DNA of 64,000 nt from an uncultured Gammaproteobacteria bacterium. Lineage in GTDB: Bacteria > Patescibacteriota > Microgenomatia > Levybacterales > UBA12049. The DNA lies in assembly GCA_964416505.1 (NCBI GenBank), contig CAYQEJ010000002.1, forward strand, positions 90,172 through 154,171, given 5' to 3'. Positions 16,372-63,383 of this stretch are shown piece after piece. A program made the position numbers and the translations under genes. The notes beneath the pieces were generated by a model that worked only from the letters and a program-made list of their open reading frames with translations, did not search any database and had not been told where the DNA came from. Position 1 is the stretch's first letter. Each line of letters opens with the position of its first letter.

Positions 16372-17940
16372 ATGACTACAGAATTACCATCAAAAGCTTC
16401 GCCAGATCAGCATATACCAGGTACCAGAACAAGAACAACACAGCCTACTTTAGGTGATGCTCTTCGTTCTGATCCGGAGCTGATTGAGCATGTCACTAGA
16501 CCTGATAGGTCTGGACTTTCCGTGGCAGAAGCCGCCTTCTTGGCAGAGCATTCGGGATTCGTACCCCAAAGACACCCCACAGAATTAGGTCCACTGCTAG
16601 GACTTAGCGAAGGATTTGTCCATCAAGGAAGAGAGTTTACGTTGATGGAAGTGCATGCGGGAGCTCGACCTTTATACCATCATGAAATGCCGAAAGAACA
16701 GGCAGACATTTCTCAAGCTATTGCAGGTATGGGCGTCTATAATACCGTAGTTGATTCTAATGGATCAAGAGGAAATGTCGATATTCATTCTGAAGTTGCT
16801 ACAGCTGTTCATGACAGAGCAAGAGAAACATTAGCTAATGGTCAATTTACTGTTATCCTCCCTTTTGCAAACGAAGCAGGAACTATCGGAAAAGCTATGC
16901 GCCATTCCGCATCAAGAGTAGGAAAAGACAATATTATTGCTATAGATGCAGAAACTGATCCCCTAGCATCATCAGAAGCACAGGCAACTAGCGAAGAACT
17001 TGGCGACGCTGATGTTGTAAAGCAATCTGATGTGTTAAGTGGAATAGACTGGGATTTACTTCGCAGAGAAGGCATTGTTCCTCCCGATTTTCAACCCAAA
17101 GGCGCAAAAGGACTAACAATGTATGCGGGTGTAATTGCAGCACAAGCTCTAGGTCAACTTGATGGAAAAACCGTTATTTTCCATGATACTGATATCACAA
17201 ACCCTGGAAGTGAAGATGCCCAAAGAAGTGAATCCGGATCTTATGGAGCACTTGAACATTTAGCAATTCCTTATACCTATCCTTTAGATTCAGGAACTAT
17301 ACATAGCACTATGATTGCTAGAACTGGTACAGGCAGAAATAATGAACCATGGCTTTATCAAGCAAACATGATCGCTGCTATGTCTCATTTACCTAAAATG
17401 CAAAGATTAGCTGTTCTACTAGGAAGTCTTGAATGGCCATTAAGCGGTGAGAGAACAATTGGCGGAAATATAACATCACACGACGGATCAATTAAGCCCC
17501 TAATTCACGAATTAGCTTTCCCTGTAGGAATGGGTGTTGAAACCTACATGAATATTGCTCTTGCTGGAATCGATGCTAAAACAGGAAGACGAAGTGTATT
17601 TCAAGTAGCGAATCCTAATCCAAAATTAGAAAATAGAGAAAGCCCAAGAGATAGAGAATATGGATTGATTTTTGGTTGCGCTAAAAATTTAAACTTCCTG
17701 GCTAGACATGTTGAAGAAACAGGAAAACATGTTATCGACTGGGATATAGACGATATCGCAAGTTTTAATCAAAAACATGGTGGAAGAAGAGACATGTTGT
17801 CCGTCCCAAGTCCGATTGACCATCAACCAAATAGAGTCGTATCATCAGGAGTGGATGTTCTCCTACCAAGTATCTCTATGCTTGAATCCTTGGGTGCTGT
17901 AAACTGGGATAAGGTTAAAGGAGCAATTAGGCCTAACTAA
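16372..17940 (+). CDS. GT-A type glycosyltransferase-like protein (glucosyl/mannosyl-3-phosphoglycerate synthase-like), compositionally distinct
   Basis: VILPFANEAGTIGKAMRH...NIIAIDAETD resembles the GpgS/MpgS pattern (V(I/L)PALNEE.TIG.V....D..(I/L)V(I/L)DSGSTD). The extra roughly 150-aa N-terminus has no match. Its stop overlaps the next start (TAATG). Confidence 0.4.
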   Translation: MTTELPSKASPDQHIPGTRTRTTQPTLGDALRSDPELIEHVTRPDRSGLSVAEAAFLAEHSGFVPQRHPTELGPLLGLSEGFVHQGREFTLMEVHAGARPLYHHEMPKEQADISQAIAGMGVYNTVVDSNGSRGNVDIHSEVATAVHDRARETLANGQFTVILPFANEAGTIGKAMRHSASRVGKDNIIAIDAETDPLASSEAQATSEELGDADVVKQSDVLSGIDWDLLRREGIVPPDFQPKGAKGLTMYAGVIAAQALGQLDGKTVIFHDTDITNPGSEDAQRSESGSYGALEHLAIPYTYPLDSGTIHSTMIARTGTGRNNEPWLYQANMIAAMSHLPKMQRLAVLLGSLEWPLSGERTIGGNITSHDGSIKPLIHELAFPVGMGVETYMNIALAGIDAKTGRRSVFQVANPNPKLENRESPRDREYGLIFGCAKNLNFLARHVEETGKHVIDWDIDDIASFNQKHGGRRDMLSVPSPIDHQPNRVVSSGVDVLLPSISMLESLGAVNWDKVKGAIRPN

Positions 17941-19097
17941 TGAATAAACAAGATCTTTCTTATCTTAATACAGTTAAATCCGCCTTTGCAGTTTACAAAT
18001 CAGGAGTTAAAAGAAAAGCAAATGGAAAATTAACATATGACTACTTAGTACCATCGGGAGTTTATGAAGAACAATGGGACTGGGATGCATTCTTCATGGG
18101 AATTGCGTTGTCTCATGAAATTCCTTCTGAAGCCATTTACTTAAAAAATTGGGTTTTAAATTTTTTAAATAATAGTGATAAAAATGGTTTTACACCCGGA
18201 TGTATTACACCGGAAGGTAGAGACAAAAGACTGCATCAAATGAAACCTTTCTTAGCACAAGGAGCATATGTAGCTTCAGTGAAAATGAATGATTTTTCTT
18301 GGCTCGAAAAAAATGTAAATCAGCTAGAGAAAATTGTACTTTTTAGAGAGAAAAATTTATGGAATTCAAAGTATGACCTAGGAGTTTGGTTTAACTCCAT
18401 GGAATCCGGTGCAGATGATAATCTCGCAGCATTAAATTTTGAAGATAAATCAATAATTGGGACTGACTTAAATTCATTTATTTATAAAGAATACGAATCA
18501 TTAAGTAAAATTTATAAAAATTTAAAGAAACCTAATTCCGCAAAAATATTTGAAGATCGTGCGAATGAAATAAAAAATAATATAAATAAATTCCTTTGGT
18601 CTGATGAATTAAACTCATATCTTAACTTAGATATATCCTCAAATAATCACGTCAAACGAATCTCCTATAACTCAATCCATCCTCTTTGGGCTGGAATTGC
18701 ATCGCAAAAAAGAGCAGAAAATTTTGTAAATAAATATCTTTTAAATAAAAATAAATTATGGTCAAATTATGGCATTAGAACGCTTTCAAAAGATGATCCT
18801 GGATATAATAATGAAAATAAAATAAAACCACACTCCAACTGGCAAGGACCAATATGGGTTATCTCAAATTACTTTTATACTCAAGCTCTTATTAGATACG
18901 GTTTTCAAAAAAAATCAGTTGAAGTAGTAAAAAAAATTGCCGAAATTTGCATAGACGACATTAAAAAATCTGGAGGGATGCATGAGAATTATGATGCAGA
19001 AAATGGAAAACCTTTGGCTGCTCCAAATTTTATATCTTGGAATCTACTACTCCCTGAAATGCTAGAAAGCTCATTATCAAATAAATTAATTTATTAA
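17940..19097 (+). CDS. GH63-like (alpha/alpha)6 glycoside hydrolase (mannosyl/glucosylglycerate hydrolase-like)
   Basis: 385 aa. The pattern WDWDAFFMGIALSH...GFTPG and the C-terminal GGMHENYDAENGKP match the GH63 / MGH / trehalase-like catalytic domain. Confidence 0.6.
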   Translation: MNKQDLSYLNTVKSAFAVYKSGVKRKANGKLTYDYLVPSGVYEEQWDWDAFFMGIALSHEIPSEAIYLKNWVLNFLNNSDKNGFTPGCITPEGRDKRLHQMKPFLAQGAYVASVKMNDFSWLEKNVNQLEKIVLFREKNLWNSKYDLGVWFNSMESGADDNLAALNFEDKSIIGTDLNSFIYKEYESLSKIYKNLKKPNSAKIFEDRANEIKNNINKFLWSDELNSYLNLDISSNNHVKRISYNSIHPLWAGIASQKRAENFVNKYLLNKNKLWSNYGIRTLSKDDPGYNNENKIKPHSNWQGPIWVISNYFYTQALIRYGFQKKSVEVVKKIAEICIDDIKKSGGMHENYDAENGKPLAAPNFISWNLLLPEMLESSLSNKLIY

Positions 19098-19103
19098 TCT
19101 TCT

Positions 19104-20171
19104 ATGAATTTAATTCAAATAAAAAAAATCCGAGATAACTTTATTGAAGAATTAAATTTATCAGAAAGAAAAAATAAAACAAGCCTTCCTTTCATTATCA
19201 ATCCTCTTCCCTCCAAAAAAATTGTTAAAAATGAAGAAGTATTCCAAGCGATTGTGGTTGGAGGAAGCATGGGCAAAATAGCAAAACTAAAAAATAACAC
19301 CAATGGATTAGAAATCTTATCAACTGAAGAAAAGGAACAACCAAGATTTGATTCTTATGAAATTTTTATGGAGTATTTAGAAAATCAGCTTCATGTAGAT
19401 ACAAAAATTCTTGCTGTTGATTTTGCTTTTCCGCTCTCCCCTATTTTAGAAGATGGAATTTTAGATGGAATTTTGCTTCGAGGAACAAAAGAACATTTAT
19501 TTCATGGACTTGTTGGAAAAAAAATTGGTGAAGAGATTAGTAATTATTTTCTAAAAAAAAGAGGACAAAAAATATTAGTCTCTTGCGCAAATGACACAGT
19601 CTGCCTACTCCTTTCAGGACTAACTAAATATTCTAAGGATAATCTGGCATGTGGAATTTTAGGAACCGGAATGAATGCCGCTTTTTTCTTAGATGAAAAT
19701 AAATGTGTCAACTTAGAATCAGCTAGTTTTGATAAATTTCCAAAATCTCCAGAAGGAGAAATTATTGATGCTTCTTCAACTCAACCGGGAACAGCACTTT
19801 TCGAAAAAGAAATTACAGGCGCCTATCTTTACAAACATTTTAATTTAATAATTAAAGAAAAAGGAATTGATTTCAAACCCATAAACTCTACCCTAGAACT
19901 AAAAAATTTATCGCACGAAAACAGTGGCGAAGTTTCCAAAATTGCAAACGAATTATTAGATAAATCTGCTGCGTATATCTCTGCTCAAATTGCTGCTATC
20001 AGTGAATTTAAAAAGAGAGATATGGTTTTCGTGATGGATGGAAGCTTTTTTTGGGAAAGTACTTATAAAAAAAGAGTTGACGAAATGATTCCTAGATTAA
20101 CAAATTATAAAATAGAATTGGTTGAAATAAAAAATAATACCGTCTTAGGACCTGCGCAACTCGTAATATAA
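19104..20171 (+). CDS. Hexokinase-family sugar kinase
   Basis: CANDTVCLL (hexokinase ...NDTVGTL...), ILGTGMNAAFF (GTGTNAAY) and VMDGSFF (DGS) are hexokinase signatures. Confidence 0.6.
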   Translation: MNLIQIKKIRDNFIEELNLSERKNKTSLPFIINPLPSKKIVKNEEVFQAIVVGGSMGKIAKLKNNTNGLEILSTEEKEQPRFDSYEIFMEYLENQLHVDTKILAVDFAFPLSPILEDGILDGILLRGTKEHLFHGLVGKKIGEEISNYFLKKRGQKILVSCANDTVCLLLSGLTKYSKDNLACGILGTGMNAAFFLDENKCVNLESASFDKFPKSPEGEIIDASSTQPGTALFEKEITGAYLYKHFNLIIKEKGIDFKPINSTLELKNLSHENSGEVSKIANELLDKSAAYISAQIAAISEFKKRDMVFVMDGSFFWESTYKKRVDEMIPRLTNYKIELVEIKNNTVLGPAQLVI

Positions 20172-24145: not shown

Positions 24146-25240
24146 CTATCTCAAATCAAGAGTTTCAGCTTTATAGATTAAATTTTTAGGTTTTATTACT
24201 ACTTGCTTCTCTCCTTTTTCTACATATCCTGCATCAATTGCCTGGAATTTATTTTTTTTGATAATACCCAAACATTTATCTACATCTTTTGGTGAAATAA
24301 TCAAACAATAATCCTGTCCCATATTATATGTTTCATACATTTCATAGTCTGATAATCCTGCATGTTTTTGAATAAATTCAAAAACTGGTTGAGGTTTAAA
24401 AATTTTTTCAACTACATACGTAAACTCAGGTCTTCCTCTCATAATTTTCCTGACACCATGTCCCGTGATATTCGAGATATAATGAATATCTACGTTATTT
24501 TTTTGCAAATCCTGAATTACTTTTGCATAAATATTTGATGGCGAAAGTAAATCTTCCCCATATGTCTTATTACCAATCTTTGTCTGATAACCCTTTGGTA
24601 GTTTTTTGGCAATTGCACGAGTTAAAGAAATTCCATTTGCATTTACTCCGTTACTCTTTATTAAAACAATTCTATCTCCTGCATTTATTTTTTTGTCAGT
24701 AACTAAATGTTTTTTATTTTTTATAATTCCAACTGCAGAACCACCCAGATCTACAGATTTACTTTCAATAATTCCTTTTAACGCTGGTGTTTCTCCCCCT
24801 CCCCAAACAACACCGGCTAAATTACATGCTTTTTCCCAACCTTTTATAAAATCCTTCATTCTTTTTCCATCCTGGAGAAATCCGTCTCCAGAATCCGCCC
24901 AGTAAGCATTTAAAACAAGAGGGCTAGCGCCCACGCTAACCAAATCATTAATAATAGTAGCAACTGTATCTTGTGCAATTTCTGCATAAAAAGATTTTTC
25001 TTGTTTTTCCCAAACGGCATCAGCGACTAAACTTTTAGTTCCCAATCCTTCCATTACGAATGCCATAAGGTACTCATTTTGCTCCCAAAGAAATGCTGAT
25101 TCACCACGCGAACCAGAAACCTCCTTAAAAGCTTTTAATAAATTTTTTGATGTATTTTTTGCACTATCTTGTGCAAGTTTTTTTATAGGATCTAATTTTG
25201 AGTAATCTACTCCAGATTTTTTATAAGTAACTTTTTTCAT
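24146..25240 (-). CDS. purM: Phosphoribosylformylglycinamidine cyclo-ligase (AIR synthetase)
   Basis: YKKSGVDYSK N-terminus and a PurM-like N/C domain pattern. Last gene of the pur operon. Confidence 0.8.
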   Translation of the reverse strand: MKKVTYKKSGVDYSKLDPIKKLAQDSAKNTSKNLLKAFKEVSGSRGESAFLWEQNEYLMAFVMEGLGTKSLVADAVWEKQEKSFYAEIAQDTVATIINDLVSVGASPLVLNAYWADSGDGFLQDGKRMKDFIKGWEKACNLAGVVWGGGETPALKGIIESKSVDLGGSAVGIIKNKKHLVTDKKINAGDRIVLIKSNGVNANGISLTRAIAKKLPKGYQTKIGNKTYGEDLLSPSNIYAKVIQDLQKNNVDIHYISNITGHGVRKIMRGRPEFTYVVEKIFKPQPVFEFIQKHAGLSDYEMYETYNMGQDYCLIISPKDVDKCLGIIKKNKFQAIDAGYVEKGEKQVVIKPKNLIYKAETLDLR

Positions 25241-25545
25241 TCTGCTTTTATTTCATGCACTACTGCTAATTCGCTTTGGACATTTCTAAGACTAATTACT
25301 CTTCCATCACCCGCTCCAAAAACATCTCCTCTTACAAATTCTTCCATTCCTCCTCCATCTGCAGCCCAAATTAATCTTCTACCGTCGACAGTATGCATAA
25401 TACTACCATACCTGACCAAACAGCTTCCTTCTAAAATTTGGAAATATCTTTTTGGACCTTCTTCTCCCAGCATGGAACTTTTCCCTGGTTCTATTACTAA
25501 ATCTATTTCTCCCCAGGATTCTCTACCTTCATTTGGTCTTGTCAT
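25237..25545 (-). CDS. Small cupin-like protein inserted between purQ and purM
   Basis: Internal Met (MTRPNEGRESWGEIDLVIEPGKSS...) gives about 100 aa with a beta-rich, cupin-like pattern. G+C visibly higher than the flanking genes. The longer track ORF would overlap purQ. Confidence 0.35.
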   Translation of the reverse strand: MTRPNEGRESWGEIDLVIEPGKSSMLGEEGPKRYFQILEGSCLVRYGSIMHTVDGRRLIWAADGGGMEEFVRGDVFGAGDGRVISLRNVQSELAVVHEIKAE

Positions 25546-25558
25546 GTTGGGAATTATA

Positions 25559-26341
25559 TTAAGAAGTAACAAATTTAACAATATTCTTAAATAAAGGTAA
25601 CCCTTGTGGTGAATCGATCGTACCACGACGCCAATTTGGATGCTGCTCGCGCCTCACAAAACATTCGGGATGTGGCATAAGACCCAAAACTCTTCCGGTT
25701 TCGTCCGATATGCCTACGATTGCATTCGTTGAACCGTTCGGATTATCAGGGTATTTTTGAGTAGGATTTCCCTTTTCATCAACGTACCGAAATGCAACTA
25801 AATTTTCTTTTTCAATTTTTTCTAAATTCTCCAAATTTGCTACAAACTTTCCTTCCCCATGCGCCACTGGGTACCAAAGAATTTGATTTTCCATACCTTT
25901 CAAGAACATAGACTTAGAATTTTCTTCAACCTTCACTTTTACCCATCTGCATTCGAAATGCCCTGAATCATTATTAACTAAGGTTGCATCCATCTCTCCA
26001 ATATTTCCAAAAGGCACCAGCCCAGTTCTGACTAAAACTTGAAAACCATTACATACCCCAATAACTGCGGTGTTCGGTCTTTTTATAAATTTGCGAATCT
26101 CATCTCCAAGATATGACACTATCTCAATTGCCAGCACTTTTCCGGAAACTATATCATCTCCATATGCAAATCCTCCAGGAATTCCCAAAATTTGATAATC
26201 AGATAATTTTTCTTTTTTATTTTTTAAGTCATTTATATGAACTAATTTTGCATCTGCTCCCGCTAGATTAAATGCGAATACCATATCCTCATCTCTATTT
26301 ATTCCATCAGCTTTTATGATTATTGCTTTAGGTTTTTTCAT
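25559..26341 (-). CDS. purQ: Phosphoribosylformylglycinamidine synthase, glutaminase subunit
   Basis: Class I amidotransferase triad: GVCNGFQVL (Cys) and HPE at the C-terminus. Start taken at MKKPKAIIIK. Confidence 0.85.
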   Translation of the reverse strand: MKKPKAIIIKADGINRDEDMVFAFNLAGADAKLVHINDLKNKKEKLSDYQILGIPGGFAYGDDIVSGKVLAIEIVSYLGDEIRKFIKRPNTAVIGVCNGFQVLVRTGLVPFGNIGEMDATLVNNDSGHFECRWVKVKVEENSKSMFLKGMENQILWYPVAHGEGKFVANLENLEKIEKENLVAFRYVDEKGNPTQKYPDNPNGSTNAIVGISDETGRVLGLMPHPECFVRREQHPNWRRGTIDSPQGLPLFKNIVKFVTS

Positions 26342-29157
26342 GAAAACATTTCCCTCATTGGCTTCTGCCAAACTTTTTTTAGTTCATCTATGTTTGCTGT
26401 AATTTTTTTATTAGCCAACCCAATTTCAATATTTTTATCTTTTTTTGTTTTTCCAAGAATTTTATAATTCAATTTTTTGAACATTTTATTTGCAATTTTT
26501 TCATTTTCAACTTCTACTAAAAAAGCTCCTGCCGTTTCATTAAAAAGAAAATAATCTTCTCTTTTATTTTTTGGCAGTTTAATATTTACCCCTAAATCCC
26601 CTCCAACACACATTTCAAAAATACTTGAAAAAATCCCCCCTTCGCTTATGTCGTGACAAGATAAAATATTTCCGGAAATGATTTCTTTATTAATTACTTT
26701 TGCTATTTTCCTAAATTTCTTTAAGTCAATTTTAGGGACGTCTTTTCCAACCAAATTATTTACATCAAAGTATGTCGATCCACCCATCGATTCGATATCT
26801 AAATCTCCAACGAGACAAACTGTAGAATTTTCCTTTTTAAAATCGGATGAAATAGTCTTTGATGCATCCGGAATCCTGCCAAAAACCGAGATACATAAAA
26901 CTGGTGGAATTTTTATTACCATATCTCCTTTTCGATAAGTTGATGACAAACTATCTTTTCCAGAAATTACAGGAATTTTTAAATTTCTCATTATGCTCAC
27001 AACTGCATCTACCGAGCTATCAAGACTAGCGAGTGATTCTTCATCAGGAAATGGCCAAATATAATTATTTATGAGTGACGCATCTTCGATATTTCCCCCA
27101 ACTGAGACAAAATTTGACAATGCCTCCACACCAGCCCAAATACTTCCATGAAATGAATCAATTCTATTTAAAATTGGGTTAAGCCCATGAGATAAAACCA
27201 TTCCGTATTTTTTATTAAGGAGAGGTCTTAATACAACACTGTCATTTGGGCTATCTAAATTCTCTCCGGAATACGGCTGCAAATCAGTTGTCCCCTGCAC
27301 TGAATGATCATACATTCGAACTATTGGTTCTTTTGAATTTATATTTCCATGCGACAAAACTTTTTTAAATATTTCAATCCATTCCTTTTCATTTTTTGGA
27401 GATTTAGGAGTTTTATTATCTAAAACATACCTGACAGTATTTCCGATCATATTTCTTTGAGGAAGACCGTTATGTAGAAATTCCATTGAAAGATTTGCGA
27501 CATTTTTTTTACCGAAAAATACTTCAAGTTTTTTTGTATTCGTAAAACTTCCCAAGACAGTCGATTCAACATTATACTTTCTGCAAATTTCCAAAAACTT
27601 TTTTGAGTTTTTCCTAGATACAGCTAAAACCATTCTTTCTTGAGATTCAGAGACCCAAATTTCCCATGGAGAAAGTCCATGATATTTAAGTGGCGCTAAA
27701 GCTAAATCAATTTTTACTCCAGTTTTAGAACCCATCTCCCCAATCGCTGAAGAAAATCCGCCTGCACCACAGTCCGTCATCGCGTTTATAAGTCCACTAT
27801 CACGCGCTTCAATAATCGCATCAAACATTCTTTTCTCTTCAATCGCATTCCCAATTTGAACAGCAGAAGAATTTACTGAAATCGTTTTATCTGTCATCTC
27901 TCCAGATGAAAATGTTGCCCCATGAACACCATCTCTTCCTGTTCTACTCCCAACTGCAATAACTAAATCTCCTTTATTAGGAATCCCTTTTTTTGCATAT
28001 TTTGTCGGAATTATTCCATAAGCTCCAACGATAACAGTTGGCTTAGCACGAAAATCATTATGAAAATGCACTGATCCATTATTTGTGGGAATTCCCATTC
28101 TGTTACCATAATCCCTGACACCATATACAACTCTCTTAAATAAATAATCAGGAGGGAGGCATCCTGCCGGCAATTCCTTAGAAGATAAATTTGGTTTTGC
28201 AAAACAGAAAATATCTGTGGAAGCAATTGTCTTAGCACCTTGTCCTGTTCCTAAAACATCACGAAATACACCACCGCTTCCTGTCATCGCCCCTCCATAT
28301 GGTTCTATTGCAGAAGGACTATTATGAGTTTCGACTTTTCCGCAAATTGAATAACCGTCATAAAATTTCATTACCCCAGAATTGTCCGAAAATGCAGAAA
28401 CTATATTTTTCGGGTGCTTTAATGCTTCTTTTCTAATTCTTTCCATTAATGGCATTTTCTTTTTTCCATCAATTGTTAAATTTGCTTTAAAAGTTTTATG
28501 AGCACAGTGCTCACTCCAAGTCTGAGCTAAAGTTTCTAGCTCTAAATCCGTTGGATCTCTTTTAATTTTTATAAAATAATTTTGAATAACTTTCATCTCA
28601 TCCAAATTAAGAAATAATTTATCTTTTGAAAGATTTATCAGATCATCGTCTGAACAATTTCTAATAGATACCACATTTGTAGGTCCAACTTTCCCTTCTA
28701 TAATTAGAGTCTCTGGTTCTTTTTCTACAACATATTCAATAAGCGGATTATAAAGTCTTTCATGATTTATAAATTCATGTATCTCTTCAAGATTTATTTT
28801 TCCAAAAAAATAATATTCCGTTGAAGAGTCTGCAGCTATAATTTTTGTTTTAAGATCTTTTGCGGATTTTAAAATTGATCCAACTTCAGGATTCATAACT
28901 CCTGGTTTATATGCAATTTCAATTTTTTTTGAACTATCATTAAATACTTTTTTATCAATAGTGTATTCTTGATTAATTTCCTCGGAAAATAATTTATCAG
29001 CTAAATATTTAGCAGTTTTTTTATCTGTACCTTCTAACCTGTAAACTCTCGCTGTTCTAATTTTGGAAGTATTATTTTTACCTAACTGAGCAAATAAATG
29101 CGTAGCTTTTAAATCATCTTTTTCTTCTTTCGAAACAACTCTAATTACATGAATCAT
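26338..29157 (-). CDS. purL: Phosphoribosylformylglycinamidine synthase II with fused N-terminal PurS-like domain
   Basis: 939 aa. The first roughly 80 aa resemble PurS (VRVTLK-like). The rest carries PurL AIR-synthase-related repeats (DFGAGG-like CGAGGFSSAIGE). Confidence 0.85.
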   Translation of the reverse strand: MIHVIRVVSKEEKDDLKATHLFAQLGKNNTSKIRTARVYRLEGTDKKTAKYLADKLFSEEINQEYTIDKKVFNDSSKKIEIAYKPGVMNPEVGSILKSAKDLKTKIIAADSSTEYYFFGKINLEEIHEFINHERLYNPLIEYVVEKEPETLIIEGKVGPTNVVSIRNCSDDDLINLSKDKLFLNLDEMKVIQNYFIKIKRDPTDLELETLAQTWSEHCAHKTFKANLTIDGKKKMPLMERIRKEALKHPKNIVSAFSDNSGVMKFYDGYSICGKVETHNSPSAIEPYGGAMTGSGGVFRDVLGTGQGAKTIASTDIFCFAKPNLSSKELPAGCLPPDYLFKRVVYGVRDYGNRMGIPTNNGSVHFHNDFRAKPTVIVGAYGIIPTKYAKKGIPNKGDLVIAVGSRTGRDGVHGATFSSGEMTDKTISVNSSAVQIGNAIEEKRMFDAIIEARDSGLINAMTDCGAGGFSSAIGEMGSKTGVKIDLALAPLKYHGLSPWEIWVSESQERMVLAVSRKNSKKFLEICRKYNVESTVLGSFTNTKKLEVFFGKKNVANLSMEFLHNGLPQRNMIGNTVRYVLDNKTPKSPKNEKEWIEIFKKVLSHGNINSKEPIVRMYDHSVQGTTDLQPYSGENLDSPNDSVVLRPLLNKKYGMVLSHGLNPILNRIDSFHGSIWAGVEALSNFVSVGGNIEDASLINNYIWPFPDEESLASLDSSVDAVVSIMRNLKIPVISGKDSLSSTYRKGDMVIKIPPVLCISVFGRIPDASKTISSDFKKENSTVCLVGDLDIESMGGSTYFDVNNLVGKDVPKIDLKKFRKIAKVINKEIISGNILSCHDISEGGIFSSIFEMCVGGDLGVNIKLPKNKREDYFLFNETAGAFLVEVENEKIANKMFKKLNYKILGKTKKDKNIEIGLANKKITANIDELKKVWQKPMREMFS

Positions 29158-31042: not shown

Positions 31043-32457
31043 TTAAAATTAATTAAACGTGAGTATTTTCCAATATCAATTGGATAATTTCCAGTAAAAC
31101 ATGCGGTGCATAATTTCTCTTCAGGAACACCTATTGCCCTAAGCAATCCTTTGTATGAAAGATAATATAACGAATCAGATCCGATAAATTTTCTAATATT
31201 TGCGATACTCATATTGGCTCCAATCAAATTTTTTTGTTTTGGAGTATCGATACCATAAAAATCAGGAAATTTTACAGGAGGAGACGAAGAAATCAAGTGA
31301 ACTTTTTTGGCACCATTTTTCTTAAGCATTAATACAAGTTTTTTAGATGTGGTTCCCCTAACTATGGAATCATCAATTACAACTACAGTTTTCCCCTTTA
31401 TAGTTTCTCCAATTGGATTATGCTTCATTTCAACTCCCCTTTCCCTAAGATGTTGATCTGGCATTATGAAAGTTCTTCCAATATATCTATTTTTAGTTAA
31501 AGCAAACTCTAACGGAATTTTTAATTTAGAAGCATATCCAATTGCAGCTGGAACGGAAGAATCAGGAACTGGAATAACCATATCAGCTTTTATGGGATTT
31601 TCCTTAGCAAGTTGAATTCCCATGTTCTTCCTAACCTCATAAATACTTTTTCCCATAAGATAACTATCCGGTCGAGAAAAGTAAACAAACTCAAAAATAT
31701 CTAATTTTAAATTTGGTTGTGCTAACTGATATGACTTAAGACCTTTTGAGCTAACAACAACCATTTCTCCTGGTTTTATATCTCTTAAAACAATTCCATC
31801 AACAGTGTCTATCGCACATGTCTCAGATGAAAAAACGTAACCTCCTCCAAGTCTCCCAATCGAAAATGGTCTTATTCCATATGAATCCCTCACTGCAGCG
31901 ATTTTATCTTTTGTCATTACCAACAAGCAAAATGCACCTTTAAACATAGGGAAAGATTTTTTTATAGCCTCTTCCAGAGATCCGGTCTTAACTAAAAAAT
32001 ATCTTATGATCTGATGCATAAGTTCAGAATCATTCAAACCATCTGTATAAAAACCTTGCTCTTTAAGAAATTTAGAAAGATTATCCGTAACAGGAAGATT
32101 TCCATTGTGTGCTAGAACCAAAACATCATCTGGACCTCTTCTAGATGTTACTGGCTGAATGTGAGTATCGTGTATTCCTCCTGAGGTTGCATATCTATTA
32201 TGACCTATTGCCATGTGACCTTTTAAATTTTTAAAATTCTCCTCATTGTAGACCTGAGCTACTAAACCTTGTCCTTTATGTGTTCTTATTCTTTTTCCAT
32301 TCGATGCAGAAATTCCCGAACTCTCCTGACCTCTGTGTTGAAGTGTATATAATCCGAAATATGTTAATCTAGCAGCTTGAAGACCCTTTCTACCATACAC
32401 GCCAAATAAGGCGCATTTTTCATTTATTTTTTCTGGATCCTTTTTTAAACTCATCAA
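31036..32457 (-). CDS. purF: Amidophosphoribosyltransferase
   Basis: N-terminal nucleophile Cys (CALFGVYG), the glutamine amidotransferase type 2 domain and a PRTase motif (VVVIDDSIVRGTT). Confidence 0.9.
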   Translation of the reverse strand: MMSLKKDPEKINEKCALFGVYGRKGLQAARLTYFGLYTLQHRGQESSGISASNGKRIRTHKGQGLVAQVYNEENFKNLKGHMAIGHNRYATSGGIHDTHIQPVTSRRGPDDVLVLAHNGNLPVTDNLSKFLKEQGFYTDGLNDSELMHQIIRYFLVKTGSLEEAIKKSFPMFKGAFCLLVMTKDKIAAVRDSYGIRPFSIGRLGGGYVFSSETCAIDTVDGIVLRDIKPGEMVVVSSKGLKSYQLAQPNLKLDIFEFVYFSRPDSYLMGKSIYEVRKNMGIQLAKENPIKADMVIPVPDSSVPAAIGYASKLKIPLEFALTKNRYIGRTFIMPDQHLRERGVEMKHNPIGETIKGKTVVVIDDSIVRGTTSKKLVLMLKKNGAKKVHLISSSPPVKFPDFYGIDTPKQKNLIGANMSIANIRKFIGSDSLYYLSYKGLLRAIGVPEEKLCTACFTGNYPIDIGKYSRLINFNC

Positions 32458-33902
32458 CTACTTAGGGCTTCCAAATTTTTTTGATTAAATTCTTTATAAA
32501 TAATTTTTTTACCAGTGATCTTTTGATAAATTTTACTATAACGATTGCTTACTTGTTTTGCAAGAGATTGAGTCATTTTTGGCGGCTCTCCATTTCCTTT
32601 ATATCCTCTTTTTGCATACCAAAGTCTCAAAAATTCTTTATCAAAATTTTCTGGCTCTAGTCCCTTTTTAAAACGATCTACATAGGTCTTTTTTATCCAA
32701 AATCTTGATGAATCTGGTGTATGAATCTCATCAATTAAAATTAATTTCCCTTTTTCATCAATTCCGAATTCATACTTAGTATCAACTAAAATAATTCCGC
32801 CTTTTGCGCAAATTTTTTCTCCTCTTTCAAATAATTTGATCGCTACATTTTTCATCTCTCGCCAAATTTTAGGAGTAACTATTTTTCTTTGAATTATTTC
32901 TTTTTCTGTCAATCTTTCATCATGGCCTTTTTCTGCTTTTGTAGTAGGGGTAACTATTGGTTTTTCCAATTTTTGATTTTTTTTCAGTCCGTCAGGAAAC
33001 TTAATTCCATAAATTACCCTATCGCCTTTTTGATATGAACCCCAAATAGAAGTATCTGTAACGCCTGTAATATAACCCCTAACAACCATCTCTATCGGTA
33101 TGGATTTCACATTCTTAGCAATCATTACGTTTGGATGAGGGATGGAAATCATATGATTTTGGACTATGTCTTTTGTTTTATCAAACCAAAATGCAGATAT
33201 CTGATTTAGTACCGCACCTTTACCTGGTATCAAACCAAGCACGCGATCAAAAGCTGAAATTCTATCAGTTGTGATTAATATTCTCTTTCCATTACTAACA
33301 TAATAATCTCTAACTTTACCCTGATATTTTTTACCAAATCCATTTAAATCCACAGTGTCAATTTTTTTCTTCCTACTTAAAGCTGCTACCATACCATCGT
33401 ACAAAACATCTGGACAAGCCCAAAATGCATCACCAAAAATTTCTGGTTTTTCCACAAGATTTTTCATAAGTAATTTTTTTGAAAATTTTTTAAAACTTAC
33501 AGATTCATGATTTAATTTTGGCTTTTGATCAGATTTAATTTCAAAAATAATAAAATAATGATTTTCATCTCTTCCAAGAATTTTTCTCTGGAAAATTGTT
33601 TTACCAATATATTTATACTTAAATTTTGAGATTCCCAGTTCTTCCAAAGCTTCTCTTTTTAAAGCATCTTCATAGGATTCACCAGAACGAATATGTCCTC
33701 CAACGGGAGAAACATATTTTCCTGGATCCTGCCTATCTTTTGCTTGCTTCACTAAAAGAAAATTTCCTTTAGAATCAATTACCTGAGCTATAACTATTTT
33801 ATGTAGCAATCCCTTTTTATGAGCTGCTAACTTATCAACTGAATAAGTTTTTTTCAAATTCTTATCTACAATATCAATTTTTTCTAAATTATTATTTTTC
33901 AT
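32454..33902 (-). CDS. purC: NUDIX hydrolase domain fused to SAICAR synthetase
   Basis: N-terminal Nudix box [24 protein letters not shown]. The C-terminal roughly 300 aa are PurC-like (KVRDYYV...[12 protein letters not shown]). Confidence 0.8.
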
Positions 33903-44955: not shown

Positions 44956-45618
44956 TTATTTAATTACATAACCAAATCCACGAACCGATTCGATTAACTT
45001 TTTATTTTGCCCTTTATCAATTTTATTTCTTAAATATCCAACATACACATCAACTACTCTTGTCTCAACGTCAGGTGAATATGCCCACACATGATTCAAA
45101 ATCCTGTCACGACTTAGAACAACTCCTTGATTTAACATGAGATACTCAAGTAGCTTAATTTCTTTTGCTGTTAATTCAATTTTCTTACCCCCTCTAACTA
45201 CTTCTAGTGAATGCGTATTTAAACTTAAATCATCAATTGAAAGCACAGGAGTCGGACTTTTTTTAAGCCTTGTTTTTATACGCGCCAATAATTCCTCGAA
45301 ATCAAATGGCTTAGAAATATAATCATCTGCTCCAAGACCTAAACCATTAACCACATCTTGTGCCTTATTTTTTGCAGTCAAGATTATAATTGGGAGATCA
45401 GGAAATATTTTTTTTGCTTCCTGACAAACTGTTTCACCGCTTACATTTTCTATGCCTAAATCTAATACTACTAAATCAATATTTCCTTCTTTAATAGTTT
45501 TTAATGCTTGTGCGCCATCAGAGGTTTCGAAAACTTTAAATCCTGATTCAAGAAGAGCCTGCTTTACAAACTCACGAATATTCTTGTCATCTTCTACCAA
45601 AAGTATATTTTGAACCAT
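44956..45618 (-). CDS. OmpR-family response regulator
   Basis: Receiver domain (LLVEDD...DLVVLDL..., the K of TAKNK) and a winged-helix C-terminus (RVVDVYVGYLRNKID). Confidence 0.9.
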   Translation of the reverse strand: MVQNILLVEDDKNIREFVKQALLESGFKVFETSDGAQALKTIKEGNIDLVVLDLGIENVSGETVCQEAKKIFPDLPIIILTAKNKAQDVVNGLGLGADDYISKPFDFEELLARIKTRLKKSPTPVLSIDDLSLNTHSLEVVRGGKKIELTAKEIKLLEYLMLNQGVVLSRDRILNHVWAYSPDVETRVVDVYVGYLRNKIDKGQNKKLIESVRGFGYVIK

Positions 45619-46218: not shown

Positions 46219-46611
46219 CTAGAATGAGGAATCTTTTTCTAATGAATTTAATTCTGTAGTAAGAGTAGTATCTGTTTGATTCAAGTCTTTATCTATCGAA
46301 TTAAGCTCATCAGTTCCTGAAACGGGTTGTATGCTTTCAGTTGGAGTAGGTGTAGATTCAACCGGAGAGGGACTAGGAACAGAAGCAACATCTGTATTTA
46401 TTCTAGCTGAATTCATAAAATAATAGCCTCCTATGCCTAATGCTCCTACAAATATTATCCCAACTAAAGCCCCAATTAAAGCAAATTTCTTCAGTGATCG
46501 AGAAGGTTTAACTTCTGGAGTTGGCGCTGGAACTGAATCAACCTGGGGTGCATCGATTGAAGCAGGTGTCTGATTTACTGGAGGCGGTGCTTGATTTAAT
46601 TTAGGATCCAT
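46219..46611 (-). CDS. Pro-rich single-pass membrane protein (MDPKL family, see 57928..58326)
   Basis: MDPKLNQAPPPV... Pro-rich N-terminus, one TM (FALIGALVGIIFVGALGIGGYYF) and an S/T/P-rich tail. Confidence 0.45.
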   Translation of the reverse strand: MDPKLNQAPPPVNQTPASIDAPQVDSVPAPTPEVKPSRSLKKFALIGALVGIIFVGALGIGGYYFMNSARINTDVASVPSPSPVESTPTPTESIQPVSGTDELNSIDKDLNQTDTTLTTELNSLEKDSSF

Positions 46612-48349: not shown

Positions 48350-48817
48350 TTGTCAAGAATTAGCAATTGTGCTATATTAAATTTAATTATGGCAATTTCA
48401 ATTCCATACTTGGGAGGAATTCTTTCAAGATTTTCTCCAGCAAGAACAAACACTCAAACTCAAACTCAAAGTCCCAAAACCGCAGAACAACCTATCCCAT
48501 CCGTAACTGAAACCCAAAGAGTTCAGGGCATTCAAGAATTAAATCAAGCACATCGTGAAAGCCTCAATCCTACTCAAGCTTTAAAATTGGATGAACAATA
48601 TTTAAATTCAAGCGCAGAAGGACATCCAAATACGCGAGAAGCTACACCTGATGAAATTGTTGGAGAAAGATTTCTCGGTGATAACAAGTGGTTTGCAAAA
48701 AGAGACGCTGAAGTAAAAGGAGTAGAATTTCAAGATACTGCGCCGAATCTCTATGATACAGCTAAAGAAGTCTTACCTCAAAAATCAACGATAGACTCTG
48801 GCGAAGGTAAGGTTTAA
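48350..48817 (+). CDS. Hypothetical protein (compositionally distinct)
   Basis: 155-aa ORF filling the gap between two minus-strand genes. Q/T/E-rich with no known domain. The true start may be internal (MAISIPYLGG, about 48389). Confidence 0.3.
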   Translation: MSRISNCAILNLIMAISIPYLGGILSRFSPARTNTQTQTQSPKTAEQPIPSVTETQRVQGIQELNQAHRESLNPTQALKLDEQYLNSSAEGHPNTREATPDEIVGERFLGDNKWFAKRDAEVKGVEFQDTAPNLYDTAKEVLPQKSTIDSGEGKV

Positions 48818-50145: not shown

Positions 50146-50901
50146 CTAACCTGACACTCCAACCACACTTTCCCCCGTACCTTGTTTAACTGTGGCTGGA
50201 AGGGGTGGTGGTTTTTCTTTTTGCGTCTCTAGATCTGCAAGTTTTTTCTCCTGATCTTCTCTTTCTATTTTCTCAGAAACACTTTCTTCAGGCGCCCTTC
50301 GAGGATTAATAAGATTTTGATAGTAAGCTCCATGGAGTTCTTTTCGAAGGGATTCAATTTTCGCAAGCTCTTCCGGAGTTTTCTCTTTATTGTTAATTAC
50401 AGGAATTCCAAGCGCATCTTTAACTGCTTGATTTGCCGGCTGTTTTGGTTTCTCTTCTTTCGAAACATTTAAACCAAGCGCAGTTTTCACTACGTCTGAG
50501 GAAGGGATAGCGTTTTCCTGTGTCTTTTTTGTACCCGTCAAACCGAGCGCCGCCTTAACGGATTGTTGATTTTGTACTGGCTTTTTACTTTGCAAGGCCT
50601 GGCCTTGCGAGGCTAAATTCTGTTGAGAGTTAGTATTTTGAGCAGAAGTCTTTACACCATATAAATCCTGAAGGAATTTTTTTGCATCATCATCTGACAT
50701 CTGCTGTTGAGCTGCGCTTCCACCTGCTTCATCTGTACCATGATCTGCCTGAGCTGAACCTGCTGGATCAGAATTAGCAATCTGTGAAGCAGTTGTAGAA
50801 GCAAAATTAGAAACCCCTTGAGCAGCAGACTTAGCTGCATTTTTGACAGTTGTTTGACCTTTTTCGATTACATCTTCGAAGCCACCAATTTGTCCAATCA
50901 T
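50146..50901 (-). CDS. Hypothetical Q/A-rich protein with three VK(A/T/D)ALG(L/I) repeats
   Basis: 251 aa. Repeats VKAALGLTGTKK, VKTALGLNVSKEEK and VKDALGIPVINNKEK. Co-directional with and overlapping recR (operon dnaX-ybaB-prs-recR-this gene-cysS). Confidence 0.5.
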   Translation of the reverse strand: MIGQIGGFEDVIEKGQTTVKNAAKSAAQGVSNFASTTASQIANSDPAGSAQADHGTDEAGGSAAQQQMSDDDAKKFLQDLYGVKTSAQNTNSQQNLASQGQALQSKKPVQNQQSVKAALGLTGTKKTQENAIPSSDVVKTALGLNVSKEEKPKQPANQAVKDALGIPVINNKEKTPEELAKIESLRKELHGAYYQNLINPRRAPEESVSEKIEREDQEKKLADLETQKEKPPPLPATVKQGTGESVVGVSG

Positions 50902-56940: not shown

Positions 56941-56982
56941 TTTTGATTTATCGACAATTTTATGTTAATCTAGCTCTTCTAC

Positions 56983-57927: not shown

Positions 57928-58326
57928 ATGGATCCAAAGCTGCCCGGAACTGACCCAAAACTTCAAGAAGCATATAACCGCGTGATGAATGGTCCAAGCG
58001 TTCCACCTCCTCCGGCACCTATGCCTGCTGCACCTACAATGCCTCAACAGGCACAAGCTCCTATGCAACCAGCGCCCATGCCTGCTGCACCTGTTCAACC
58101 AAGCGCGGTTCCCACCCAACCCGCAGCGCCAATGACTGCATCCACTTTAGCTTTTAATGCAAATAATCCATCCAAGAATCAAGGGGCCACAGTAAAAAGA
58201 GGTGGATCAAAAATAATGTCCTTAGTAGTAGCTTTAGGAATAATTGTACTTTTAGTAGTCTATACTTTCGTGTGGATTTATGTTTTTAAGCTTCAGATTC
58301 CTTTTCTTCCTCAATTTTCTCAATAA
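57928..58326 (+). CDS. Pro/Ala-rich single-pass membrane protein (MDPKL family)
   Basis: MDPKLPGTDPKL..., a PAPMPAAP-rich region, then one TM (IMSLVVALGIIVLLVVYTFVWIYVF). Promoter TTGACA-16-TAAACT upstream. Confidence 0.45.
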   Translation: MDPKLPGTDPKLQEAYNRVMNGPSVPPPPAPMPAAPTMPQQAQAPMQPAPMPAAPVQPSAVPTQPAAPMTASTLAFNANNPSKNQGATVKRGGSKIMSLVVALGIIVLLVVYTFVWIYVFKLQIPFLPQFSQ

Positions 58327-59557: not shown

Positions 59558-59577
59558 TTAGCTTCAAGTATAGCACA

Positions 59578-60489: not shown

Positions 60490-60547
60490 ACCCTTTGAGT
60501 CTATCAATTTTATTGTAAAAATTAAAGTCAAATGCTAGACTCAGATT

Positions 60548-61216: not shown

Positions 61217-61542
61217 ACCACCTCAGATCCAGGCTCAATATCGCGATTTGGCTCAAGCAAAACAACATTGTCACTTCCGGTTCCTGTTGCCACTAACATT
61301 CCCTGAGATTCTTCTCCTTTAAATTTTCTATATTCAAGATTAACTACGAATGGTAAAGTTTTTCCTACTAAATCTTCTGGAGCATAACTCTCTGCAATTC
61401 CTGAAACAATTTGGCGTTGAAACTCACCGAAATCCACTTGAAGTCGAAGCAACTTATCTGCATCCTCAACTTTCTCGCATTCGGTTATTTTCCCCATTAA
61501 AATTTTTACTTTTTTAAATTCTTCAAAATTTATTTGATCCAT
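61213..61542 (-). CDS. tRNA-binding domain protein (CsaA/Trbp111/MetRS-C-like)
   Basis: 109 aa. The pattern VKILMGKITECEKVEDADKLLRLQVDFGE...QIVSGI matches the OB-fold tRNA-binding domain (VG.I.......A.KL....VD.G). Confidence 0.65.
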   Translation of the reverse strand: MDQINFEEFKKVKILMGKITECEKVEDADKLLRLQVDFGEFQRQIVSGIAESYAPEDLVGKTLPFVVNLEYRKFKGEESQGMLVATGTGSDNVVLLEPNRDIEPGSEVV

Positions 61543-62975
61543 TGTTTTCCGTCCTTTTCTAGTAGCACATTTCCTTCATTCGGCCCCCATCCACCTGATT
61601 GATAAACTGAAATATTTTTTTCATTCTCCCATGTTTTTAGAATATTGTCCAGAAGTTTCCAAGAATTTTGAATTTCATCTGATCTTGAAAACAAAATCTG
61701 ATCACCTGAAAAAATATCGAGTAAAATTTTTTCGTATGCATCAAGACCAACTGTTCCAAAATCGTCTTTATAATTAAATTTCATATTCACACTCCCTAAT
61801 TTTAGTTTTGCACCCGGCTGCTTTGCGATTAGACGAAGAGTAATTCCTTCATCAGGCTGAATTCTAAAAGTTAGTACATTTCCAATTTCAGGACATCCGT
61901 ATTCTTTAAATAAAATATGACAAGTTTGGTAAAAGACTATAGAAATTGTTATGACTTCTTTTTCCATTCGCTTTCCAGCTCTAATATAAAACGGCACACC
62001 CGAAAAGCGTGGAGTATTAACTAAAAGCTTCATGGCTACATATGTTTCCGTATCTGAACCTTTCTCTACCTCTTCTTCATTTTTATAATCATCGTACTGC
62101 CCTCTTATTACATTCTTATCAGCAAGAGTTACTGCGCTAGTTACCTTTGCTCTTTCATTTCTAACATCTTCCTTCGTAAAACTTCGAGGCTGCTCCATCG
62201 CAATGGATGAAATAAGCTGCATAATATGATTTTGAACTACATCCCTTAGCATTCCGACTCCATCAAAAAAATTTCCTCTATTTTCAATTCCTTCCTTTTC
62301 CGCCCAAGTAATCTGAACGTGATCGATAAATTTTGAACTCCATACCGGTTCAAAAATGCTATTCGCAAATCTAAAAGCCAGAATATTTTGAACCGTTTCT
62401 TTTCCAAGATAATGATCTACTCTAAAGATTTGTTTTTCGTCAAAGATATTTGATAGTTTTTCTTCAAGCATTTTTGCGGTTTCTGCGTCCTTTCCAAATG
62501 GTTTTTCAATAATTACTCTCGTCCACTTATTACTTCCTTGACCACAACCCTCAGAAAGCTTGGTGCTAACTAATTTATCTAAAATATCTGAATAATGCTG
62601 TGGTGGTGTAGCTAAATAAAAGAATCTCGTGATACATGCGCCAATTTTTTCATCAAGCTTATTTAAATGTTTTATTAGATTTTCATATCCTTCGTTTTTT
62701 TCAAAAGTTCCTTTCTCGTAATGAAGATGTTTTGAAAATTCATCCCATCCTTCCTCCTTACTTAATCCATCAAAAGAATTTCGGAAATCTTCATCAGAAT
62801 ATGCTCGACGAGAGTATCCGATAATTGAAAACTCTTCTGGCAACATTTTTTTATTAAAAAGAGAAAGGAGCCCTGGGATCAGTTTATGATGAGATAAGTC
62901 TCCCGTGGCACCGAAAATTATCATTACAAAAGGACTATTCATTTGAGAAAAAACTTCCGGAGATTGCATATCCAA
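61530..62975 (-). CDS. zwf: Glucose-6-phosphate 1-dehydrogenase
   Basis: IIFGATGDLSHHKL (NADP binding), RVDHYLGKE and the active-site region. Confidence 0.9.
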   Translation of the reverse strand: MDMQSPEVFSQMNSPFVMIIFGATGDLSHHKLIPGLLSLFNKKMLPEEFSIIGYSRRAYSDEDFRNSFDGLSKEEGWDEFSKHLHYEKGTFEKNEGYENLIKHLNKLDEKIGACITRFFYLATPPQHYSDILDKLVSTKLSEGCGQGSNKWTRVIIEKPFGKDAETAKMLEEKLSNIFDEKQIFRVDHYLGKETVQNILAFRFANSIFEPVWSSKFIDHVQITWAEKEGIENRGNFFDGVGMLRDVVQNHIMQLISSIAMEQPRSFTKEDVRNERAKVTSAVTLADKNVIRGQYDDYKNEEEVEKGSDTETYVAMKLLVNTPRFSGVPFYIRAGKRMEKEVITISIVFYQTCHILFKEYGCPEIGNVLTFRIQPDEGITLRLIAKQPGAKLKLGSVNMKFNYKDDFGTVGLDAYEKILLDIFSGDQILFSRSDEIQNSWKLLDNILKTWENEKNISVYQSGGWGPNEGNVLLEKDGKQWIK

Positions 62976-62987
62976 TGATTATAGTTC

Positions 62988-63383
62988 TTGACGCAGCAAA
63001 CTTCAAAGTGTATATTTACGCACATGACAGAAGGAAGAAGACCAACCCCTACGGAAGCTATAGTAAGACACTCTACCCAAACAGCTCAGGGAGAACTAGC
63101 TGGAGCAAGTGGCATACGAACTCGCAGATGGACATTGGATTTAACACAGGATGGAGGATTACTCATTAGAAGACTTAAAAATGGAGCAACACAAAGACTA
63201 ATTACAGTTTCACCAGGAAGCCCAGATACTTTAATTCCAGAAGCAAGAATAACTGTTCTCGATTTAGAGTCAGGAAATATAATTAATGAAGGCCAAAAAC
63301 CTAGGAGAATTCTAAGAAGTGCAATTAGACAAATTTTTCCCGACAGAACCGCAATTCAAGATGAATCAAACAGAACTCTCTAG
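62988..63383 (+). CDS. Hypothetical protein (compositionally distinct) between zwf and pgl
   Basis: 131-aa ORF on the opposite strand in the 400-bp gap. R/T/Q-rich with no known domain. A non-coding RNA is an alternative (see findings). Confidence 0.3.
   Translation: MTQQTSKCIFTHMTEGRRPTPTEAIVRHSTQTAQGELAGASGIRTRRWTLDLTQDGGLLIRRLKNGATQRLITVSPGSPDTLIPEARITVLDLESGNIINEGQKPRRILRSAIRQIFPDRTAIQDESNRTL

Follow-up and report, generated by a model that had tools for sequence, protein, structure and literature searches.

Accessory genes of a Levyibacteriota genome whose protein composition stands apart from an AT-rich background

For horizontally acquired genes, the amelioration model is reportedly due to Lawrence and Ochman. 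Orphan genes that are under purifying selection and encode more disordered proteins have been described, and in a large gut-microbiome survey the guanine-plus-cytosine (GC) content of orphans matched that of conserved genes almost one to one, virus-like orphans being AT-richer (PMC11293555). For Patescibacteria, genomic islands and transfers of individual genes have been reported (PMC12455944). The present work concerns a 64,000-nt stretch of DNA, hereafter the window (assembly GCA_964416505.1, contig CAYQEJ010000002.1, positions 90,172 to 154,171), and six of its genes, here called A to F, which stand out by their composition. An earlier note on this DNA had described them as singletons inserted into otherwise intact operons, and had left their origin unexplained.

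The six genes have something in common with each of these systems. Like ameliorated genes, they resemble the host at third codon positions and differ from it at first and second positions; unlike them, they have no detectable donor lineage, and A is not a decaying relic. Like prokaryotic orphans, they are clade-restricted, mostly short and without known domains, variably present, and under a weaker but real purifying selection, A being the exception to orphan narrowness, with 23 homologues. Unlike the surveyed orphans (PMC11293555), the class that they form has a GC content about 10 points higher at codon positions 1 and 2 and identical at position 3, and Arg replaces Lys in it, against the mutational bias. 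As in the islands of Patescibacteria (PMC12455944), accessory genes of the Candidate Phyla Radiation (CPR) are gained and lost, and the first 6 kb of the window looks island-like. In contrast to those islands, the six come without island boundaries, tRNA genes, integrases or an atypical third-position GC. Orphan accessory genes are a known kind, and it is the resistance to AT drift in the fastest-evolving genes that is unexplained. A full-text literature search gave no description of this compositional class in CPR genomes.

The genes are A (16372-17940, plus strand), B (25237-25545, minus), C (38001-39575, minus), D (43730-44953, plus), E (48389-48817, plus) and F (63024-63383, plus). The starts of D, E and F are those of public gene calls and correct the earlier ones at 43718, 48350 and 62988. 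The window has a GC content of 33-34% and carries most of its genes on the minus strand; neither tRNA genes nor Rfam families were found in it. Its relatives by homology and synteny are Candidatus Levyibacteriota (Microgenomates, CPR), of which assemblies JACPLG01 and JAGOUW01 are named. Labels L002-L119 designate homologous or syntenic loci in other genomes that were compared with the window. The window sequence and its genes recur in independent assemblies and samples.

Composition was measured gene by gene for about 70 window genes, with 46 ordinary genes as the reference, using the GC content at each codon position (GC1, GC2, GC3), the summed fraction of Phe, Tyr, Asn, Lys and Ile residues (FYNKI), and the Arg share of Arg plus Lys, R/(R+K). 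The six are indeed G+C-richer and poor in Lys, Asn and Ile, as had been noted. Their GC1 is 0.46-0.56 and their GC2 0.38-0.52, for window means of 0.46 and 0.35, so that positions 1 and 2 together reach 0.44-0.51, versus 0.39 in other genes; GC3, at 0.17-0.27, surrounds the window mean of 0.22. FYNKI is 0.16-0.21 in the six versus 0.340 +/- 0.049 in the ordinary genes (minimum 0.246), and R/(R+K) is 0.47-0.89 versus 0.25 +/- 0.09 (maximum 0.46), without overlap. Arg is 2.3-fold up, Lys and Phe are about 2.4-fold down (Lys 4.2% versus 10.1%, Phe 2.4% versus 5.5%, Cys 0.1% versus 0.7%); Gln, Pro, His, Thr and Ala are higher, Ile, Asn and Tyr lower. Among the synonymous codons for Arg, Gly, Ala, Pro and Leu, the preferences are those of the host: AGA makes up 67% of Arg codons (background 62%) and GGA 59% of Gly codons (background 56%). 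With GC3 and codon usage those of the host, these genes are not raw recent transfers, and on this point the earlier note was right.

We defined the composition class by FYNKI below 0.25 and R/(R+K) above 0.45. Fourteen of 70 window genes belong to it: all six, six others in the first 6 kb, and two at 8957-9875. Class and remaining genes do not differ in GC3 (0.225 versus 0.221, p = 0.56), whereas they differ strongly at positions 1 and 2 (0.488 versus 0.390, p = 3e-7) and in the presence of a Pfam family (2/14 versus 43/56, Fisher p = 2.8e-5). Pro accounts for 9.5% of the first 30 residues in these proteins and for 2.6% in those of ordinary genes. A discrete bimodality was looked for and rejected, Gaussian mixtures favouring no second component over one (n = 70). 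Within a continuous distribution the class makes a marked shoulder, with no separate mode at this sample size.

The composition does not follow the trend of the core genes. Among 31 of these, faster evolution goes with more FYNKI (rho = -0.53, p = 0.002), as AT pressure predicts. Class genes evolve fastest of all (median identity 48% versus 76%), and their FYNKI is about half the value predicted by the core-gene trend. Even at variable alignment columns FYNKI is 0.15-0.25 in class genes, versus 0.27-0.51 in ordinary ones. Positional orthologues were found in relatives, and they have the composition of the class rather than an ordinary one. The pattern is real and reproducible across relatives.

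Gene A encodes a 522-residue protein that would be a glycosyltransferase of GT-A type, glycosyl-3-phosphoglycerate-synthase-like, and it is the first gene of a three-gene sugar module in which it is followed, on the plus strand, by an MGH1-like/GH63-like hydrolase (17940-19097) and a hexokinase-like sugar kinase (19104-20171), both recognised by Pfam. FYNKI, R/(R+K) and GC3 of A are 0.176, 0.64 and 0.247; its two partners have an ordinary, AT-shaped composition (FYNKI 0.38 and 0.35, R/(R+K) 0.18). The stop of A overlaps the start of the hydrolase gene by one base, so that the description of each gene as standing alone fails here. The 23 homologues of A include one from a Roizmanbacteria and one from a Dadabacteria genome, the two whose sources are named. 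An A homologue is followed by the MGH1-like/GH63-like hydrolase in six other genomes; the sugar kinase comes directly after both in L002 and L004, whereas in L005 it is located about 7 kb downstream, and in L119 a GFO/IDH/MocA oxidoreductase takes the place of the hydrolase. The whole module is absent beside macB in L019-L023, and is itself a variable block.

An AlphaFold model of A, based on an alignment of 23 sequences, had a predicted local distance difference test score (pLDDT) of 87 and a predicted template modelling score (pTM) of 0.87. When it was compared with PDB by Foldseek, 49 of 49 matches at E <= 0.001 were glucosyl- or mannosyl-3-phosphoglycerate synthases (GpgS/MpgS, E from 9e-10 to 1e-6), and the nearest solved structures come from Actinobacteria, Thermus and Pyrococcus. 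The triplet D272-T-D274 is invariant in the 23 sequences. With the GT81/GT55 enzymes GpgS and MpgS, which occur alongside glucosyl-/mannosylglycerate hydrolases, A shares its predicted fold, a DxD-type motif and a hydrolase neighbour. It differs from them by an identity of 14-18% only, by some 200 extra residues, and by a template modelling score (TM-score) of 0.35-0.43 on query length. Sequence profiles were silent, with 16.1 bits against NCBIfam NF010496 (cut-off 262) and no Pfam family. By its modelled fold A resembles the glucosyl-/mannosyl-3-phosphoglycerate synthases, and it may transfer glucose or mannose to 3-phosphoglycerate. The recurrence of A with the hydrolase, the one-base overlap, the fold and the motif together indicate that A is a functional partner of its neighbours, and no insertion.

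Homologues of A could be compared in seven genomes of local GC 0.337 to 0.47. Across these, FYNKI stays at 0.18-0.23, R/(R+K) at 0.60-0.76, GC1 at 0.53-0.63 and GC2 at 0.38-0.46, while GC3 tracks the host, from 0.25 to 0.47. In the hydrolase partner both measures change along with the host, FYNKI from 0.38 down to 0.26 and R/(R+K) from 0.18 up to 0.48. In genomes of 45-47% GC, A is no compositional outlier. The contrast seen in the window comes from the ordinary proteins, which have drifted with AT pressure, whereas A has not. The composition of A belongs to the protein, not to the host GC.

Gene D is likewise part of a block. It lies between a histidine kinase gene (42409-43704) and a response regulator gene (44956-45618), both on the minus strand: its start is 25 nt from that of the kinase, and its stop two bases from that of the regulator. 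The protein, 407 residues long and divergent, resembles fold-type-I pyridoxal phosphate (PLP) enzymes of the HisC/CobD kind. Residues 80-393 align with positions 41-360 of the 361 of PF00155, at 18.3 bits (E = 0.0014), just under the cut-off of 19.7; the match to TIGR01140 (CobD) has an E of 2e-7 and is far under its cut-off. A Ser-x-Ser/Ala-Lys motif, SDASKVLGVPGLGFGF, can be read directly in the translation, where SDASKVLG holds the expected PLP-binding lysine, and we take it to be the counterpart of the HisC/CobD motif that carries this lysine. Searches of PDB by sequence gave nothing useful for A or D, and no match at all for D.

Only two clusters at 90% identity represent D among 5.8 billion proteins. 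L007, a relative of 35% GC, is collinear with the window from 32.5 to 55 kb, and its orthologue of D, 58% identical, lies between the same kinase and regulator on the opposite strand. It keeps the composition (GC1 0.55, GC2 0.44, GC3 0.24, FYNKI 0.21), as do other orthologues in that genome. In L009 a 96%-identical D meets the regulator gene at the same junction. More distant relatives, L037, L038 and L042, lack kinase, D and regulator jointly. D is fixed between kinase and regulator.

Gene B behaves otherwise. It encodes a 102-residue orphan between purQ and purM, starting 13 nt past the purQ stop and overlapping the purM start by 4 nt. It has its own promoter on the minus strand at 25546-25583 (TTGTTA, 17 nt, TATAAT, 7 nt, ATG), which would be of leaderless type and whose -35 element lies inside the conserved 3' coding end of purQ. 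No match was found in Pfam, NCBIfam, PHROG or PADLOC, and among 1.84 billion representative proteins only three non-self ones were retrieved: a 102-residue cluster of 70% identity, a full-length protein of 49%, and a fragment of 36 residues. B occupies the identical site in L018, L020 and L022 (64-69% identity), and is absent with a clean junction in L019, L023 and L024, where the purQ-purM gap is 5 nt. It is thus present in four genomes and absent in three, and in a purL+purM tree the genomes that bear it fall in both main branches. L017, whose PurL and PurM proteins are 94% identical to those of L018, where B is intact, has a remnant at 9880-10000, in which an internal deletion has left the promoter, about 20 codons from the start of the gene and 5 from its end: there B is being lost. 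In L021 the same slot holds an unrelated open reading frame (ORF) of 116 codons. A role of B as PurS was considered and ruled out on sequence. PurL (26338-29157) has 939 residues, with an N-terminal extension and the FGAR-AT linker domain, PurQ is encoded by a gene of its own, and a separate purS is lacking. PurC (32454-33902), of 482 residues, has an N-terminal NUDIX fusion. A complete purine operon is unusual for a CPR genome.

Gene C is a 1.55-kb insertion specific to the window lineage. The nuclease-family and DNA-alkylation-repair genes that flank it abut without it in L007, L037 and L038, and in L039 this slot holds an unrelated 151-residue gene of class composition. The 524-residue protein has sigma-70-like regions 3-4 at about residues 174-305, the part covered by sigma matches in PDB; residues 249-300 match PF04545 (region 4) with 55.6 bits for a cut-off of 24.1, and the NCBIfam and PADLOC MzaA-like matches concern region 4 only. 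Neither Pfam nor NCBIfam gave a region 2 family, although a very divergent region 2 is still possible, and neither the N-terminal part nor some 220 C-terminal residues could be assigned to a family. C is the sole member of its cluster at 90% identity, and no relative was present in any locus examined. Searches of PHROGs and PADLOC returned sigma-related matches only, a tblastn search of 50,697 phage records sigma region 4 only, and JGI metagenomes contained no close homologue of C or E. The last 19 codons of C (38001-38059) are antisense to the conserved C-terminus of an endonuclease/exonuclease/phosphatase-family gene, which is what an inserted ORF would produce by reading through into its flank.

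The two remaining genes are small. E, an orphan of 142 residues, is located between a Na/Ca exchanger gene and cysS, on the opposite strand, with its own promoter, apparently leaderless. Among the 1.84 billion representatives it matched only itself. At the same position L007 has a 109-residue gene of the same composition, weakly similar to E (phmmer E = 5e-6 in a small set). F, with 119 residues of which 16 are Arg and 2 Lys, is situated between the start of zwf and the stop of pgl, on the opposite strand, behind a promoter reading TTGACG, 17 nt, TATATT, 7 nt, ATG. Two non-self representatives of F were found among the 1.84 billion. A single-sequence AlphaFold model, with a pLDDT of 60, predicts a helix, six strands and a helix. 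That F lies beside a truncated pgl pseudogene was ruled out, as this ORF runs off the window end and has the SGGTTP motif.

The pgl|zwf slot is variable. In L011, L013, L014, L015 and L032 it is occupied by one to three genes on the opposite strand, every one of them Arg-rich and FYNKI-poor. F is 38-41% identical to the C-terminal half of a 266-residue protein encoded beside pgl, also on the opposite strand, in L011, L015 and L032. Two or three orphan genes are found at L011 8143-9960, L015 8745-9977, L032 8720-9954 and L013 145-1542: that of 266 residues, another of 176 or 132, and a well-conserved one of 131-134. The window has kept just F, the 119-residue relative of the first. On sequence comparison, F is a member of a small, fast-evolving family tied to the zwf|pgl slot.

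Similar genes fill further slots between conserved genes in related Levyibacteriota genomes. The ddl|DHH slot, for instance, contains genes encoding 219-223 residues with class composition, and a 335-residue gene of this kind occurs in L035. None of 10 slot proteins of relatives had a Pfam match at the curated cut-off, while gained or lost genes with recognisable folds had an ordinary composition. A hidden common family was sought by all-against-all BLASTP and phmmer, with 20 and with 41 class proteins, and only several small separate families emerged; the suggestion of one gene family is thereby set aside.

The layout of B between purQ and purM, of D between kinase and regulator, and of F between zwf and pgl is as originally described. 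The idea of singletons inserted into intact operons fared unevenly. It fails for A and D, which belong to modules, and it holds for B and C to the extent that they show presence/absence polymorphism, the slot of F being variable. To speak of a cassette inserted into operons is a mistake where A and D are concerned, and has no support in the other four.

We consider it the most probable reading that the six are unrelated, clade-restricted accessory genes whose protein composition resists AT drift. They would be restricted to Candidatus Levyibacteriota and be expressed, by prediction, from host-type promoters; they are under purifying selection, as measured for B, D and the F-slot families. Their proteins would keep a 'mid-GC' make-up, high in Arg, Pro, Gln, Thr and Ala and low in Lys, Phe, Ile, Asn and Cys, while AT-biased mutation would have enriched all other proteins in Lys, Asn, Ile, Phe and Tyr. 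Synonymous sites have fully equilibrated with the host, leaving only codon positions 1 and 2 to stand out. A and D are fixed parts of small multi-gene modules gained and lost as blocks; B, C and the F cluster are single genes, whose variable slots would be filled and emptied by ordinary insertion and deletion. Homologous recombination through conserved flanks probably spreads the presence/absence states, with no need for dedicated mobility machinery.

The rigidity of A, the FYNKI-poor variable columns and the deviation from the core-gene trend favour a composition held by selection on the protein, and such selection presumably maintains it in all six. Several points weigh against this. No selective cause common to such unrelated proteins was found. 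Rigidity across host GC is seen for A alone; for D two genomes were compared, and for B and F close relatives with 33-40% GC. The analysis covers 64 kb of genome, and a discrete second mode lacks statistical support. The Arg:Lys ratio is about 1:1 at variable columns of A and D, versus 2-7:1 at conserved ones, and a slow erosion of foreign composition would give the same. Finally, an island gene with a GC-rich actinobacterial homologue, described below, may mean that foreign ancestry contributes to the class.

This leads to the next explanation, which we hold to be possible, if doubtful: ancient transfers from GC-richer donors, with GC3 ameliorated and positions 1 and 2 still donor-like. Host-like GC3 with raised GC1 and GC2 is what such a lag predicts, although an intrinsic protein composition would look alike. 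The ratio just mentioned is in keeping with it, and so is the origin of the solved structures nearest to A. Its best case lies outside the six, in the first island, a group of nine genes at 288-5977 on the minus strand, six of which have both features of the class and three of which are borderline. Its DUF6855 gene (2041-2448) is 63% identical to a plasmid protein of Rhodococcus antarcticus that adjoins a recombinase gene, and has a GC3 of 0.32 versus 0.84 in that homologue, a GC1 of 0.53 versus 0.66 and a GC2 of 0.43 versus 0.55. At variable columns it is already shifted, with a FYNKI of 0.30 versus 0.09. On the sequence evidence, this gene is likely a cross-phylum transfer.

For the six themselves, however, no donor-like homologue was found, and none had a homologue in GC-rich lineages in the databases searched. 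B, E and F have at most three non-self matches among the 1.84 billion representatives, D has its two clusters, and every A locus examined has 34-47% GC. Over this same range the composition of A is static while its hydrolase partner moves, and the fastest-evolving proteins still have about half the predicted FYNKI. The proposal of ancient acquisitions is borne out by the DUF6855 gene; for A it is contradicted as the cause of the composition.

Returning to selection on the proteins, one may ask whether it acts on a common function. It is rather unlikely, in our view, that a clade-wide pool of fast-evolving orphans, Arg-rich and poor in Lys, Cys and aromatic residues, makes up one functional class in Levyibacteriota. 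Pro-rich N-termini, own leaderless promoters and slots between core genes would be its marks, and its members could be host-delivered, host-acting or directed against host defence. If so, the shared composition would be actively selected, for instance as lysine avoidance, and not inherited from a donor.

A role as secreted or host-directed proteins of an episymbiont (effectors, or anti-defence proteins), with a make-up selected for export and for survival in another cell, is unlikely. Low Cys, Lys and Phe with Pro-rich N-termini would suit it, as would fast evolution, frequent gain and loss, small tandem clusters, and the 10 of 10 slot proteins of relatives that have no known domain. Yet neither signal peptides nor known secretion motifs were seen, A and D look like enzymes in metabolic and regulatory modules and C is sigma-like, all of them expected in the cytoplasm, and no functional link joins the unrelated families. 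An export or host-interaction role of the six is speculative, and unlikely for A, C and D.

A dedicated mobile cassette inserting single genes, with its recombinase encoded elsewhere, is very improbable. The tight junction gaps of 2-13 nt, the frequent opposite-strand orientation and the polymorphism of B and C had suggested it, and the promoters of B and C have TATAATTCCCA in common. But TATAATTCCCA is a common host promoter with its discriminator, and is present at ordinary genes too. Around the six, the longest shared direct or inverted words are of 7-8 nt, which is no more than in random pairs of window positions (p 0.45-0.89), and comparison of the B junction with genomes lacking B revealed no target duplication. 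Pfam scans of the window genes gave no recombinase, integrase or transposase family. Where A, B, D and F have homologues in relatives, the gene context is always the same, and B in L017 decays by internal deletion, not by excision. In a search for a viral origin, scans of IMG/VR with C, with four island proteins, and with A, D, B and F together gave no relatives; as exact matches of 8 residues were needed, this excludes close relatives only. The cassette idea is thus not upheld.

Promoters, too, look native. Upstream of B, C, E and F we found a TTG-type -35 element, 17 nt, TATAAT or TATATT, 6-10 nt and the ATG, without a Shine-Dalgarno sequence. Many ordinary first genes share this layout, so that the style, apparently leaderless, belongs to this genome and is not foreign. 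Many first genes of transcription units in the window have TTGAC(A/T), 17 nt, and TATAAT ending 6-8 nt before the ATG, again without Shine-Dalgarno sequence (examples at 1370-1405, 1999-2035, 5978-6012, 7318-7352, 11798-11832 and 62970-63023), and some internal operon genes have GGAGG. This suggests that leaderless mRNAs are widespread in this CPR genome.

That the six are spurious ORFs or products of chimeric assembly has next to no probability: most have no database family, but three-base periodicity is clear (GC1 > GC2 >> GC3), independent assemblies and samples yield the same gene calls, several genomes have positional orthologues, and A has a confident structure model. Ratios of nonsynonymous to synonymous substitution (dN/dS) between close pairs are 0.10 for D, 0.12 for B and 0.17-0.27 for the zwf|pgl slot families, thus 0.10-0.27 overall, compared with 0.02-0.14 for neighbouring genes; they cover the orthologues of D and B and the families of the F slot, there being no suitable pair for C and E.

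Other window genes have related features. Most first-island genes have their own promoter, apparently of leaderless type, and DUF3761 and DUF6855 are the only recognisable families among them; the genes at 2491-2832 and 2898-3224 are paralogues. The two further class genes, 8957-9451 and 9513-9875, both on the minus strand, have the same composition and no Pfam family. A membrane-anchored protein rich in Pro, Ser and Thr (46219-46611, minus strand) is FYNKI-poor and not Arg-rich, a related low-complexity subtype, and has a positional orthologue in L007 with 36% identity. The recR|cysS slot holds a low-complexity protein rich in Gln, Ala and Ser (50146-50901, minus strand), with counterparts in L007, L037, L038 (2667-3227), L040 (8909-9496) and L042 (2384-2956). 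Its position is kept and it evolves fast, with 36-59% identity in those cases where the proteins could be matched. A proline-rich protein with a C-terminal membrane helix (57928-58326, plus strand), FYNKI-poor and conserved in position, has 53-66% identity in close relatives and 35-46% in L037 and L040.

Two methyltransferase genes (6649-7272 and 8085-8711) flank an S51 peptidase gene and have nearly identical upstream sequences, GACCTATAATAATATATAATT, which suggests a local duplication. Homologues of purM or zwf were found in assemblies titled 'uncultured Gammaproteobacteria bacterium' (L010-L013, L016-L021, L023, L025, L028, L032, L033 and L035). The closer of these records, of 72-92% identity, are collinear with the Levyibacteriota window, and there the label looks wrong.

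Raised GC1 and GC2 with a host-like GC3 are usually read as the mark of old foreign DNA, and this reading would misclassify genes here, at least A. In the window the fastest-evolving proteins are the least AT-shaped, the reverse of the trend in core genes, and the class offers a tractable case in which mutation pressure can be separated from selection on amino acids. The pattern singles out those genes of a very small genome that are clade-specific and turn over fast, and these are the likeliest carriers of the biology that is these uncultured bacteria's own.

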